Positions 50,079-52,128 of a DNA stretch of 64,000 nucleotides are shown here, in pieces. Numbering within the stretch: the stretch's first letter is position 1; every line of letters begins with the position of its first letter. The DNA comes from an uncultured Alphaproteobacteria bacterium (GTDB lineage Bacteria > Pseudomonadota > Alphaproteobacteria > Rickettsiales > UBA1997). The stretch covers positions 14,075-78,074 of the forward strand of contig CAIZZE010000059.1 in assembly GCA_903937405.1 (NCBI GenBank), in the 5' to 3' direction. The translations under genes were made by a program, and so were the position numbers. The notes below the pieces were generated by a model that saw only the letters and a program-made list of their open reading frames with translations, did no database searches and had not been told where the DNA came from.

Positions 50079-50912
50079 ATGAAAACACAAAATACCAATA
50101 CCCAATTTTCTTTTTTTAAAGGTAAAAAAATCCGCAAAATTCTTCATGAAAATGAATGGAATTTTTCGGTTATTGACGTTGTCGAATCTTTAACTGATAG
50201 CGTAAACCCTCGCGATTATTGGTTCAAGATGAAAACTAGATTTATTGAAGAAGAAAAACTTCAGTTGTCGACAATTTGTCGACAACTGAAGTTAGAATCT
50301 TCCGATGGCAAAAAATATGAAACCGATTGCGCCAACACCGAAGGAATTTTTCGTATCATTCAATCAATTCCATCGCCAAAAGCTGAGCCTTTCAAACGCT
50401 GGCTGGCGAAGGTTGGATATGAACGAGTGCAAGAAATTGAAAATCCCGAACTGGCAACAAAACGCACCAGAATGCTCTATAAATTAAAGGGTTATTCGGA
50501 AGACTGGATTGAAAAAAGAATGCGCGGAATCGCAATTCGCGAAGAGTTAACCGATGAATGGAAAAATCGTGGCGCTGATGAAAATCGTGATTATGAAATT
50601 TTAACCGCTGAAATTTCTAAAGCGACTTTCGGACTTACGCCTTCCGAATATAAAGAACATAAAGGTTTGAAGTACCAGAATCTTCGCGATCATATGGATG
50701 ATTTTGAATTGATTTTCACCATGTTAGGTGAACGCTCTACAACAGAAATTCACCGCAACGAAAATTCTCGTGGCATAAAAAAATTAAAAGAAGACTCCAA
50801 AATCGGCGGCAAAATTGCCGGAAATGCTCGTAAAGAGCTGGAGAAAAAACTAGGCAAATCAATTGTTTCGAAGAAAAATTTTTTAGCAAAAGAATCTAAT
50901 AAAAACATCTAA
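50079..50912 (+). CDS. Bro-N / DinD-like (DNA-damage-inducible protein D family) protein
   Basis: 277 aa. The N-terminal IRKILHENEWNFSVIDVVESLT... and ...QLKLESSDGKKYETDCANTEGIFRIIQSIPSPKAEPFKRWLA fit the Bro-N/DinD family pattern from memory. Confidence 0.6.
   Translation: MKTQNTNTQFSFFKGKKIRKILHENEWNFSVIDVVESLTDSVNPRDYWFKMKTRFIEEEKLQLSTICRQLKLESSDGKKYETDCANTEGIFRIIQSIPSPKAEPFKRWLAKVGYERVQEIENPELATKRTRMLYKLKGYSEDWIEKRMRGIAIREELTDEWKNRGADENRDYEILTAEISKATFGLTPSEYKEHKGLKYQNLRDHMDDFELIFTMLGERSTTEIHRNENSRGIKKLKEDSKIGGKIAGNARKELEKKLGKSIVSKKNFLAKESNKNI
50258..50292. repeat. 35-nt perfect palindrome inside the Bro-N/DinD-like CDS
   Basis: acttcagttgtcgacaa-t-ttgtcgacaactgaagt: 17-bp perfect arms, each containing GTCGAC. 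It encodes KLQLSTICRQLKL. Confidence 0.8.
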
Positions 50913-50913
50913 A

Positions 50914-51465
50914 ATGTTCGTTGAGTTCAAGAAATTTCTTAAGTCTTTTTGCCTAACTTTGATAAGTATTTTTGTTGTCTTAGTAGCACTAAATCTAGAA
51001 GGAATTGACGGAAATTATGATAAATTATTTTCGGCAATAGGTTCATTTGGATCGGTTTTTATTGGCTACGCAGCTTATCGAATTTCAAAAGAACAACAAA
51101 GAAGCACTAATCAGAAAATCTCTGACGAAGAAAAAGAAATTATTAGAAGGCATTACAAAAAAACTGATCTCTTATTTTTAAAAATTAGAAGCACGGGTTT
51201 AAAAAAAGACAAAGCCGAAGCTGATTTTCATGATTTAAAAATGGAGCTTTGTGACTTGGCGGATTCTGCGGCAGTTGAAATGCCCGAAGGTTTTGAAGAA
51301 AAAATGAAAGAATTATTCAATTTCTTAGAGCGGGCAAAAAAATTAGAAATAAAAGCAGATAAAGATTTGATTGGATTCGTAGAAGAATCTTCAGAATTTC
51401 GTCGAAAACTAGAAAGCATCTATACTAAATACCTAAAAATCCCAACTAAAAACCATGAAAATTGA
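50914..51465 (+). CDS. hypothetical protein, two N-terminal TM helices + helical cytoplasmic tail
   Basis: 183 aa. It starts 1 nt after the upstream stop and overlaps the HEPN gene by 11 nt. Confidence 0.4.
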   Translation: MFVEFKKFLKSFCLTLISIFVVLVALNLEGIDGNYDKLFSAIGSFGSVFIGYAAYRISKEQQRSTNQKISDEEKEIIRRHYKKTDLLFLKIRSTGLKKDKAEADFHDLKMELCDLADSAAVEMPEGFEEKMKELFNFLERAKKLEIKADKDLIGFVEESSEFRRKLESIYTKYLKIPTKNHEN

Positions 51466-51847
51466 CCTTTCGCTTTTTGAAAAAGCCATTGCCAGCCTTG
51501 AAGAAGTTTTGCAATTAGAAAAAACTCCAATCATTCGCGATTCAGCAATACAGCGCTTTGAATATAGTTTTGAATTTGCGGTAAAATTTATGCGCCGCTA
51601 CATTCAAGAAAATTATTCAGTTATGAGCGACTATGATTCAAACAATTTTCGCGACGTAATTCGAACCGCGTTACAGCTAAATATCACCAAAAAATCTTTT
51701 GAAACTTGGATAAAATATCGCGACGCCCGCAACAAAACTAGTCACGGTTATAGCGAAAAAGCTGCCGAAGAAGTTTATGAAGTTGCGCAAGAATTTTTGG
51801 GCGAAGCAAAATTGGTTTATCAATTTTTAAAAAATCATTTTAAATGA
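51455..51847 (+). CDS. HEPN-domain nucleotidyltransferase substrate-binding protein (HI0074 family)
   Basis: 130 aa with RDSAIQRFEYSFEFAVKFMRRY and the Rx4H motif in RDARNKTSHGY. Confidence 0.7.
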   Translation: MKIDLSLFEKAIASLEEVLQLEKTPIIRDSAIQRFEYSFEFAVKFMRRYIQENYSVMSDYDSNNFRDVIRTALQLNITKKSFETWIKYRDARNKTSHGYSEKAAEEVYEVAQEFLGEAKLVYQFLKNHFK

Positions 51848-52128
51848 ACTTAGAAAAAAAATTTGCCTCCTTAATAAAAGCCACAATAGACAAGCATCTG
51901 CACGGGGCGGAGGTTTTTCTTTTTGGGTCGCGCGCAAAAAATACCAATCAAGAATTTTCTGATATCGATATTGCAATAAAATCTCCAAACCTTGATTTTG
52001 AAGCTCTTGCGAAAATCAGGTTCGACCTCGAAGAATCTAACTTGCCCTATAAAATTGATTTGGTGAATTATTACGATCTCAACCAAGAAATTTTAGAAAA
52101 ATCAGTTAAGCTAATAAAAAATTTATGA
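51844..52128 (+). CDS. minimal nucleotidyltransferase (MNT, HI0073 family)
   Basis: 94 aa with LFGSRAKNTNQEFSDIDIAI (the GSx..SDxD signature). It has a 4-nt overlap with the HEPN gene, and its stop overlaps the gatB ATG as ATGA. Confidence 0.75.
   Translation: MNLEKKFASLIKATIDKHLHGAEVFLFGSRAKNTNQEFSDIDIAIKSPNLDFEALAKIRFDLEESNLPYKIDLVNYYDLNQEILEKSVKLIKNL

Follow-up and report, generated by a model that had tools for sequence, protein, structure and literature searches.

The interval between gyrA and gatB in the stretch of DNA analysed here (64,000 nucleotides, hereafter the window) probably holds three separate accessory units stacked at one insertion hotspot, namely a Bro-N protein gene, the gene for an orphan membrane protein and a HEPN-MNT toxin-antitoxin pair. 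The original prediction had read these four genes as a single extended module, and the comparison with close relatives speaks against that view. The window comes from a freshwater alphaproteobacterium with Rickettsiales-like genome features, including a 16S rRNA gene unlinked from the 23S-5S rRNA genes and the presence of virB4. The features of the locus are as follows.

47229..50039, + strand: gyrA, 936 aa, with DNA_topoisoIV and DNA_gyraseA_C domains; upstream boundary of the variable interval
50040..50078, + strand: 39-nt A/C-rich spacer and Bro-N gene leader, between the gyrA stop and the Bro-N start
50079..50912, + strand: Bro-N protein ORF (unit 1), 277 aa; Pfam Bro-N, PADLOC PDC-S13
50257..50293, no strand assigned: perfect palindrome of 37 nt with 18-bp arms inside the Bro-N ORF, encoding KLQLSTICRQLKL
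50914..51465, + strand: membrane protein ORF (unit 2), 183 aa, starting 1 nt past the Bro-N stop; orphan family
51455..51847, + strand: HEPN ORF (unit 3a), 130 aa, overlapping the membrane protein ORF by 11 nt; HI0074 family
51728..51751, + strand: RX4HXY motif, RNKTSHGY (R92-x4-H97-x-Y99), predicted RNase site and AMPylation-acceptor tyrosine
51844..52128, + strand: MNT ORF (unit 3b), 94 aa, overlapping the HEPN ORF by 4 nt; HI0073-like, antitoxin-type
51925..51969, + strand: GSX10DXD motif, GSRAKNTNQEFSDID = G28-S29-RAKNTNQEFS-D40-I-D42, MNT catalytic motif
52125..53582, + strand: gatB, 485 aa, its ATG lying within an ATGA common to the MNT stop; downstream boundary
53587..53660, no strand assigned: long AT-rich hairpin where gatB and virB4 converge (MFE -28.7 kcal/mol, z = -7.2)

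On re-examination of the ORFs, every coordinate, spacing and overlap of the four co-directional genes proved to be as first described, and so did their tight packing and start/stop coupling to gatB. All five ORFs are real genes with homologues for each, and purifying selection acts on Bro-N, HEPN and MNT (dN/dS 0.03-0.22). GyrA is 82-97% conserved at the amino acid level in relatives, and the gatB start codon is the junction abutted by every variant of the islet. The absence of a terminator between gyrA and the Bro-N gene also held, as no terminator-like site was found in the 39-nt spacer. The last 13 nt of this spacer accompany the Bro-N ORF in one relative (L093), and a leader similar to it persists in another (L005), although L005 is without the Bro-N gene. 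Downstream of gatB, the AT-rich hairpin matches as a self-complementary element on both strands and is probably a bidirectional terminator closing the transcription unit. Scans for promoter and terminator consensus sequences returned sites no more frequently than in shuffled sequence, and we therefore only infer the operon structure, including co-transcription of the islet genes with gatB.

No population other than that of the window (L001, 99.7% nucleotide identity) was found to carry the complete four-gene block; there, the same neighbouring genes flank it on 19 contigs. Among relatives with gatB 83-99% identical, a presence/absence matrix resolved six architectures, and close relatives carry subsets of the block. 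L087, whose gatB is 99% identical at the amino acid level, has the order gyrA, Bro-N, membrane gene, gatB and is without HEPN-MNT; L004 and L005 have gyrA, membrane gene, HEPN, MNT, gatB and are without Bro-N; and in L093 Bro-N runs directly onto gatB without the membrane gene. In L002 and L003, the order is gyrA, membrane gene, MNT remnant, methylase, gatB, where only a 3' remnant of MNT is left and a methylase-like gene has been inserted. The L002 remnant is 85% identical, is accompanied by a duplicated 5' start of gatB and adjoins an inserted Eco57I-like methylase gene and a 190-aa gene; the remnant and the duplicated gatB start therefore show directly that sequence was replaced here. Overall, L087, L092 and L093 carry the Bro-N gene, and L004, L005 and L002 do not. 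The gatB ATG is overlapped as ATGA by MNT in the window and L004 or by Bro-N in L093, and the stop of the membrane gene lies 4-7 nt ahead of it in L087 and L092. Because the relatives hold partial combinations, we conclude that Bro-N, the membrane gene and HEPN-MNT have each been acquired and lost independently and with ease. Insertion, exchange and deletion would affect single ORFs or pairs of ORFs and would be exact with respect to the gatB start codon, and the strain of the window would have stacked three such units.

These comparative data largely refute the model of a single four-gene abortive-infection or stress module that became fixed when it was inserted into a housekeeping operon, and we now regard that model as highly improbable. 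It had drawn on the co-directional, nearly gap-free arrangement coupled to gatB, on parts that are all of defence-island or toxin-antitoxin type, which was borne out for every component, and the block is indeed stable within the window's own population. However, every partial combination occurs in close relatives, Bro-N alone abuts gatB in L093, and the block was not found beyond one population. The accompanying expectation that placement in a housekeeping unit would make the block hard to lose was contradicted as well, since HEPN-MNT has been lost at 99% gatB identity in L087 and the locus has been remodelled in L002. The PADLOC family HMMs recognised no multi-gene system in the block; their hits were confined to two single-gene candidates, PDC-S13 for Bro-N and PDC-S09 for MNT, and HEPN and the membrane protein matched none. 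In the window, L087 and L092, which represent three divergent genomes, the Bro-N gene adjoins or overlaps the membrane gene, so that neighbouring genes may be functionally coupled to some extent. It should be noted that all comparison loci belong to one clade and one chromosomal site, so that much of the linkage is explained by shared ancestry and not by either dependence or independence of the units. A gatB scan of a genome collection returned mostly distant alphaproteobacteria, and the nearest species-representative matches, the metagenome-assembled genomes L007 (68%) and L008 (64%), are without the gyrA-gatB arrangement.

Judged by profile and motif, unit 3 is a canonical HI0074/HI0073-type HEPN-MNT type VII toxin-antitoxin pair. 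The HEPN protein matches NTase_sub_bind (E=3e-29), passes the TIGR01987 model of the HI0074 family (87.2 bits, cutoff 55.8) and has 1JOG (HI0074) as its closest solved structure (E=1e-15), while the MNT protein matches Polbeta (E=1e-13) and NTP_transf_2 (E=7e-12), with 1NO5 (HI0073) as the closest solved structure (E=1.5e-8); further matches are the HEPN-MNT entries 8XDJ/8XEH from Legionella pneumophila. Both the RX4HXY motif, with its catalytic R and H and acceptor Y, and the GSX10DXD motif, as defined in PMC11586414, are intact, and the two genes form an adjacent, co-oriented dyad with a 4-nt overlap, which is the type VII layout. The predicted identities of Bro-N, HEPN and MNT were upheld by profile searches, and those of HEPN and MNT also by their intact motifs. 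Scores against the NCBIfam equivalogs HepT_toxin (17.9 bits) and MntA_antitoxin (43.2 bits) fell below the cutoffs of 60, and the dyad is therefore assigned to the HI0074 branch and not to Shewanella HepT/MntA. In MNT-HEPN dyads in general, MNT is almost always 5' (PMC3710099); the dyad of the window is reversed, with HEPN 5' and MNT 3' as in HI0074/HI0073, from which it differs in its position between the membrane gene and gatB and in the overlap of the MNT stop with the gatB start. L004 likewise has HEPN first, as do stand-alone HI0074-type dyads on three unrelated plasmids, those of Ca. Bandiella, Zymomonas and Legionella (L115-L117), where the two genes overlap by 4-11 nt.

The low dN/dS of HEPN (0.03-0.05; MNT, 0.22) indicates that the gene is functional. 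Its dS of 0.20-0.27 is below that of the flanking gatB (0.54) and gyrA (1.37), and the transfer of the dyad between lineages therefore postdates the divergence of the genomes. By analogy with characterised homologues, MNT would AMPylate Tyr99 in the RX4HXY loop and so hold the HEPN RNase inactive, and the ATGA overlaps would tie antitoxin translation to toxin translation. Toxicity of the RNase and its neutralisation by AMPylation would likewise follow the pattern of those homologues, and any role in defence is putative.

As does unit 3, unit 1 stands alone elsewhere. The Bro-N protein scores 43.2 bits against PF02498 (Pfam gathering threshold 25.6, E=6e-11, residues 18-111) and is a member of PDC-S13 by a near full-length match to PADLOC PDLC04920 (E=2.6e-116, residues 7-274 against profile positions 4-272 of 286). 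Going by the PADLOC naming convention, we take PDC-S13 to be an unvalidated single-gene candidate, and we found no mention of it in the literature searched. Its members are annotated variously as 'DNA-damage-inducible protein D', 'Bro-N domain-containing protein' and 'prophage antirepressor-like'. The family comprises more than 8000 homologous clusters with about 80% identity across phyla and occupies thousands of unrelated genomic contexts; the best 120 of these clusters are 75-97% identical and come from phyla as far apart as Patescibacteria and Acidobacteriota. One homologue, from an organism labelled Acidobacteriota at its source, is found in a lexA-DUF72-dnaE2-type operon, downstream of lexA and the dnaE2-type polymerase gene. 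A scan of viral contigs yielded only 13 Bro-N relatives (41-70% identity) and no member of the membrane protein family, and neither family is therefore mainly phage-borne. The dN/dS of the Bro-N gene is 0.06-0.10.

The description of this protein as DinD-like stood only in part. Its C-terminal 70-120 residues align weakly with E. coli DinD and Deinococcus DdrC (hhalign probability 54%, E=1e-4, 69 columns), and two family members match the DinD and DdrC models (E=2e-4 to 2e-5); the C-terminal domain thus appears remotely DinD/DdrC-like. Orthology with E. coli DinD was rejected: the protein of the window gave no match to the DinD model NF008573, its relatives reached 21-24 bits against an equivalog cutoff of 242, and pairwise BLASTP with E. 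coli DinD gave E=0.15. The AF2 model (pLDDT 50) was too poor for a fold search. The Bro-N protein is probably a DNA-binding factor responsive to DNA damage or foreign DNA.

The Bro-N gene of the window differs from PDC-S13 in being co-oriented with gyrA and the downstream genes, with no terminator between, and in holding an internal palindrome, over which, as elsewhere in 46.9-53.7 kb, Rfam has no family. A covarying hairpin or palindrome is kept at equivalent codons in 16/16 Bro-N homologues examined, and in ten of the 16 no other 41-nt window of the gene has a lower folding energy. Across homologues, 84% of cells are paired (55% when shuffled) and 14/14 pairs have been altered on both sides, a result that none of 500 shuffles equalled; wobble pairs are not in excess. 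In L093 the changes are compensatory and synonymous. A LexA box was rejected by eye, as the spacings misfit the consensus sequences of such boxes. We know of no earlier description of a palindrome in PDC-S13 genes, and the element, kept across phyla, may be a novel cis-acting element within the coding sequence, such as an operator or cruciform to which the Bro-N protein itself binds, or a regulatory hairpin.

Unit 2 matched no Pfam, NCBIfam or PADLOC family in profile searches. It had been described as a two-TM protein, and this applies without reserve to the first hydrophobic segment (Kyte-Doolittle 19-residue mean 2.48); the second, a Gly/Ser-rich helix at residues 38-56, is only marginal (about 1.1 by hand calculation on the Kyte-Doolittle scale), yet it is conserved family-wide and is the sole hydrophobic segment in distant members. 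The predicted architecture is one of N-terminal hydrophobic helices, one strong and one marginal, followed by a cytoplasmic helical bundle. Homologues number 8 by single-sequence query and 20 by profile among 5.8 billion sequences, and 20 clusters among 1.84 billion representatives; a metagenome scan with a narrower alignment of the family returned one locus, L087. A Foldseek search of the PDB with the AF2 model (pLDDT 66) gave generic four-helix bundles, none at E<0.3. The family resembles SLATT 2-TM effectors in its N-terminal hydrophobic helix pair and in its nucleotidyltransferase or TIR neighbours, and assignment to SLATT was rejected with 1/16 members matching (E=0.018, 14.6 bits against a cutoff of 60). 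Matches to Pfam Halogen_Hydrol (XpaC-like) in five of the 16 members, all sub-cutoff and at best E=7.6e-4, are a weak lead.

Within the clade, no other gene occupies the gyrA-gatB interval as constantly as the membrane gene (6/7 architectures), and the sequence of the membrane gene is highly variable. In L087 the protein is 35% identical while gatB is 99% identical, and the dS of about 2 for the membrane gene against 0.28 for gatB points to replacement by an allele from an old pool. Across strains, the N- and C-terminal modules of the protein are shuffled into the combinations A1, B1, A2, B2, B3 and B4, with the motifs KEQ...KISxEER, LELP and YSKYLK retained, and reassortment with retained motifs indicates selection on the protein and not decay. 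A lineage-restricted protein with a conserved TM core and reassorting modules would fit diversifying or frequency-dependent selection, a pattern like that of surface, phage-interaction or defence genes. The protein could instead be a lineage-specific housekeeping or envelope protein, its variability arising from relaxed constraint or from antigenic variation at the cell surface, with neighbours that are coincidental. The constancy of the gene in the clade, the lack of any recognisable catalytic or effector domain and the generic fold matches are in keeping with such a role, but the gene is absent from L093, the modules appear selected, and distant homologues reside in integrase-flanked islands and type I R-M operons; on balance, we find this explanation decidedly improbable.

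The distant homologues raise the question of partnership. In L090 the homologue lies inside a type I R-M operon and overlaps a CAP12/PycTIR-type TIR gene (PDC-S35), and the L100 homologue, flanked by hsdM and hsdS, overlaps a gene for a 179-aa protein with one TM segment. Downstream DNA was readable for three distant members, and two of them thus precede an overlapping gene. In their position between hsdM/hsdS and hsdR or hsdS the homologues of L090 and L100 resemble accessory genes of type I R-M operons, whereas the locus of the window is without an R-M system and is an islet between two housekeeping genes. According to PMC3710099, HEPN genes of a related clade cluster with R-M operons. A minority hypothesis is that the membrane gene may work with whichever gene comes next, the protein being the conserved sensor or effector subunit of a two-part membrane-anchored system, with its modules setting specificity and Bro-N unrelated. 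The close junction with HEPN in the four loci with both genes (4-11 nt overlap in three, 6 nt apart in the fourth), the overlapping genes in L090 and L100 and the likeness of the mosaic, fast-evolving modules to specificity determinants are in its favour. However, gatB follows the membrane gene directly in L087 and L092 with no effector between, the gene persists in L002 after HEPN-MNT was destroyed, the downstream partners share no similarity to one another and only a handful of contexts are readable, and HI0074 dyads appear complete as two-gene loci elsewhere. Moreover, HEPN is 97-98% identical beside three membrane module combinations in which the adjacent protein is 35-48% identical; this lack of co-variation argues against a specific partnership of HEPN with the variable parts of the membrane protein. 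We therefore hold the two-part system to be unlikely. Equally tentative is the broader proposal that the membrane protein represents a new, modular and membrane-anchored defence family with interchangeable downstream effectors, HEPN-MNT here and TIR or others in type I R-M operons, in which the reassorting modules would set specificity, and that the palindrome is a new cis-element; taken together, we doubt it.

The preferred reading, three units at one hotspot, implies that tight packing and start/stop overlaps are not enough to define a system, and defence-system catalogues should not take up the proposed four-gene HEPN-MNT variant. Instead, the locus is a clean, naturally occurring case of a small hotspot flanked by two essential genes of a Rickettsiales-like genome, at which toxin-antitoxin, methylase and candidate-defence genes are swapped as exact ORF units. 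The palindrome, residing within the coding sequence of a very large and highly conserved candidate-defence family, is a lead of possible wider importance and could explain how the Bro-N gene is regulated or what its product recognises. Finally, an unannotated and strongly diversifying membrane family that is also found within type I R-M operons constitutes another such lead.

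Between gyrA and gatB, the ORF map and the raw sequence reproduced all the coordinates, spacings and overlaps that the original prediction had claimed for four ORFs, and the 39-nt gap that it had described as lacking a terminator indeed gave no terminator-like site in the terminator scan.

Features from gyrA to the end of the gatB transcription unit (window coordinates)
50039: end of gyrA (ORF map and raw sequence)
39 nt: spacer from gyrA to the Bro-N ORF (raw sequence)
50079-50912: ORF 1, Bro-N protein, 277 aa
50914-51465: ORF 2, membrane protein (TM), 183 aa, starting 1 nt past the Bro-N stop
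51455-51847: ORF 3, HEPN protein, 130 aa, overlapping the membrane ORF by 11 nt
51844-52128: ORF 4, MNT protein, 94 aa, overlapping the HEPN ORF by 4 nt
52125: start of gatB, within ATGA (ORF map)
53587-53660: AT-rich 74-nt hairpin between convergent gatB and virB4

The hairpin (MFE -28.7 kcal/mol, z = -7.2) is likely a bidirectional terminator and probably marks the end of the transcription unit after gatB, and the three accessory units (Bro-N, the membrane gene and HEPN-MNT) probably share one co-oriented, read-through transcription unit. Matches of this hairpin to mir-3202, on both strands, were weak and judged spurious. The virB4 gene present in the window (53663-56176) is only 58% identical to that of the related locus L004 (3047-5518), whereas the flanking gatB and citrate synthase are 90% and 93% identical; virB4 may be a second allele-replacement site adjoining the gyrA-gatB islet. 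The 16S (35256-36744) and 23S-5S (1963-4974) rRNA genes of the window lie some 30 kb from each other and are unlinked, as is characteristic of Rickettsiales-type genomes. Among species representatives, the gatB sequences closest to that of the window share 68% and 64% identity with it. The related contigs are mostly from environmental metagenome assemblies, a number of them bearing lake-style sample names, and the organism is probably a Rickettsiales-like freshwater alphaproteobacterium.

Profile searches on all four proteins confirmed the Bro-N, HEPN and MNT identities originally assigned and gave no family match for the membrane protein. Owing to its rarity, the latter was chosen as the best probe for the question of whether the four genes form a cassette, and architectures were compiled from the DNA around homologues of the membrane and Bro-N proteins.

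Seven gyrA-gatB architectures in genomes with gatB 83-100% identical to that of the window (amino acid identities to the window; L handles, loci from other contigs; SBP, solute-binding protein gene)
gyrA-Bro-TM-HEPN-MNT-gatB: window and L001, same population
gyrA-Bro-TM-gatB: L087; gatB 99%, Bro-N 97%, TM 35%
gyrA-TM-HEPN-MNT-gatB: L004; HEPN 98%, MNT 88%, gatB 90%, TM 35%
gyrA-TM-HEPN-(MNT): L005 and one other contig; in L005 gyrA 86%, TM 48%, HEPN 97%, MNT 85%
gyrA-TM-[MNT codons 50-94 and first 25 nt of gatB]-Eco57I-like methylase-190 aa-gatB: L002/L003; gyrA 88%, TM 47%, gatB 87%
gyrA-SBP-Bro-TM-gatB: L092; gyrA 82%, Bro-N 79%, TM about 22%, gatB 83%
aminotransferase-Bro-gatB, with Bro-N and gatB overlapping as ATGA: L093/L094; Bro-N 86%, gatB 88%

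These partial combinations indicate that Bro-N, the membrane gene and HEPN-MNT assort independently, and we consider it fairly probable that the three are independent modules. The original prediction had instead joined the four genes into one extended module, but relatives hold partial sets, such as L087 without HEPN-MNT and L004 without Bro-N, and among the loci read the full block occurred only in the window and L001; while the parts were correctly named, a single four-gene system is highly improbable and we do not regard it as real. Nor is the block hard to lose from a housekeeping unit, as had been supposed, since relatives have readily lost or remodelled it. In L002, the 3′ end of MNT persists together with a duplicate of the first 25 nt of gatB (6306-6464), followed by an Eco57I-like methyltransferase (313 aa) and a 190-aa gene (6533-8173) and then the real gatB; the remnant is the scar of a cassette replacement at this site. 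Comparison of the junctions across loci showed that the last gene before gatB, whichever it is, abuts or overlaps the gatB ATG, which marks the gatB start as the constant boundary of a small insertion hotspot.

The HEPN ORF belongs to the NTase_sub_bind, HI0074 family (TIGR01987 score of 87.2 bits, cutoff 55.8) and the MNT ORF is a Polbeta/NTP_transf_2 protein, with HI0074 (1JOG, E=1e-15) and HI0073 (1NO5, E=1.5e-8) as their best solved-structure matches. RX4HXY and GSX10DXD, the motifs by which type VII HEPN-MNT pairs are defined (PMC11586414), are present as R92-x4-H97-x-Y99 and G28-S29-x10-D40-x-D42, and the low dN/dS of HEPN (0.03-0.05) and MNT (0.22) indicates that both genes are functional. 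MNT-HEPN dyads in general almost always carry MNT 5′ (PMC3710099); in contrast, the window pair and three HI0074-family plasmid dyads (L115 2498-3197, L116 2492-3210 and L117 2501-3224; from Ca. Bandiella, Zymomonas and Legionella) place HEPN 5′ and MNT 3′. The plasmid dyads share the window's style of overlap (4-11 nt) and have unrelated neighbour genes, and their common layout makes the window pair an ordinary member of the HI0074 branch. Most likely, as in characterised homologues, MNT would AMPylate Y99 of the HEPN RNase, and the ORF overlaps would couple antitoxin synthesis to toxin synthesis. The dS of HEPN against L004 and L005 (0.20-0.27) lies below that of flanking gatB (0.54) and gyrA (1.37, against L005), which indicates that exchange of the dyad (51455-52128) within the clade postdates the divergence of the genomes and implies recent recombinational spread among the clade's lineages.

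The membrane gene has a dN of 0.45-0.63 and a dS that is saturated even against L087, where gatB dS is 0.28, which indicates that an old pool supplies replacements for whole alleles. In strains that share 99% gatB identity, the membrane alleles match at just 35%. Segment analysis (window 50914-51465 and homologues P0002-P0014) distinguished two N-terminal types with a mutual identity of about 24% and at least four C-terminal types with mutual identities below 20%, combined as A1 (window), B1, A2, B2, B3 and B4 around a centre comprising the second helix and KEQ...KISxEER (50-78% identical). The protein is a mosaic whose terminal modules recombine around a conserved central helix. Of the two TM helices originally proposed, the first stands (Kyte-Doolittle mean 2.48, strongly hydrophobic) and the Gly/Ser-rich second is insecure (about 1.1 by hand calculation on the same scale). 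Homologues are few: in 5.8 billion sequences, a single-sequence query found 8 and a profile 20, and a set of 1.84 billion representatives also yielded 20. A profile lead to SLATT failed, and the AF2 model (pLDDT 66) matched only generic helical bundles.

Distant family members occupy mobile or defence contexts, including type I R-M operons: within an integrase-flanked island, hsdM-hsdS-hsdS-TM-TIR(PDC-S35)-hsdR, with a 4-nt TM/TIR overlap (L090, 6001-7256); between hsdM and hsdS, overlapping a 179-aa one-TM gene (hsdM-TM-179aa-hsdS; L100, 5001-6054); and adjoining an integrase and a GIY-YIG gene (L088, 5634-7250). Such overlaps could suggest that the membrane protein truly partners with the gene downstream of it, but this is unlikely: no similarity was found among the downstream partners of the homologues, and HEPN is almost invariant beside three different membrane alleles, as would not be expected if it bound the variable modules specifically. 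Mosaicism and the R-M contexts point most to a diversifying envelope-associated factor that would act in phage interaction or defence, and make a non-defence role quite improbable.

The Bro-N assignment is secure (Pfam score of 43.2 bits, cutoff 25.6), with a nearly full-length match to the PADLOC candidate PDC-S13 (PDLC04920, E=2.6e-116). The DinD likeness originally attached to it fared less well: BLASTP against E. coli DinD gave E=0.15, hhalign a probability of 54% over 69 columns, and relatives match the DinD and DdrC models with E values near 1e-5 but score well short of the cutoff, so that the link is a distant one and involves the C-terminal domain alone. The family is large (>8000 clusters), and the dN/dS of the Bro-N gene is 0.06-0.10; the best-listed matches, 75-97% identical, are from Patescibacteria, Acidobacteriota, Margulisiibacteriota and others, and viral contigs rarely carry it (13 loci, 41-70% identity). 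In L095-L098 (302-5825, source-named Acidobacteriota), a 79%-identical homologue comes immediately after lexA, DUF72 and a dnaE2-type polymerase gene, an SOS-type context. A YoeB/Phd toxin-antitoxin pair lies downstream of that homologue. Judging from its domains and this one context, the Bro-N protein most likely binds DNA and would answer DNA damage or foreign DNA.

Inside the Bro-N ORF, the terminator scan flagged a perfect 37-nt palindrome (50257-50293), to which Rfam gave no match. A hairpin lies at the same codons in all 16 Bro-N homologues with DNA (loci compared: window, L087, L092, L093, L095 and L101-L113) and in 10 of them has the lowest energy of any 41-nt segment of the gene, while both its sequence and the encoded peptide differ (QLSTICRQL, ELYEKIVQL, NWGTICTQV, QTVTNCNQL, GWGQIVTPL). 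In L093, synonymous changes in the arms are complementary (CAG TTG/CAA CTG versus CAA CTG/CAG TTG) and 18 bp are kept. In an ungapped, loop-centred alignment, the proportion of paired cells is 84%, compared with 55% in shuffles and no more than 45% with the partner slid; pairs were altered on both sides in 14 of 14, and the covariation score was reached by none of 500 shuffles, with the caveat that the centring was done on each individual hairpin. Watson-Crick pairs fill 185 of 224 cells, and the similar counts of G·T (4) and A·C (6) reveal no RNA-strand asymmetry; the element is equally likely to act as a DNA-level palindrome or as an RNA hairpin. Where Bro-N is missing, the gyrA-TM spacers (L004 143-348; L005 1855-2115; L002 5584-5722) between them contain a leftover Bro-N-like leader and several GC-rich hairpins; that of L004 holds a GTCGAC-rich palindrome remnant and then a strong hairpin resembling a terminator (CTCGATGTCATGCTTAAGCATGACATCGAG and then T5). 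The orphan membrane family and the intragenic Bro-N palindrome are the points worth pursuing.
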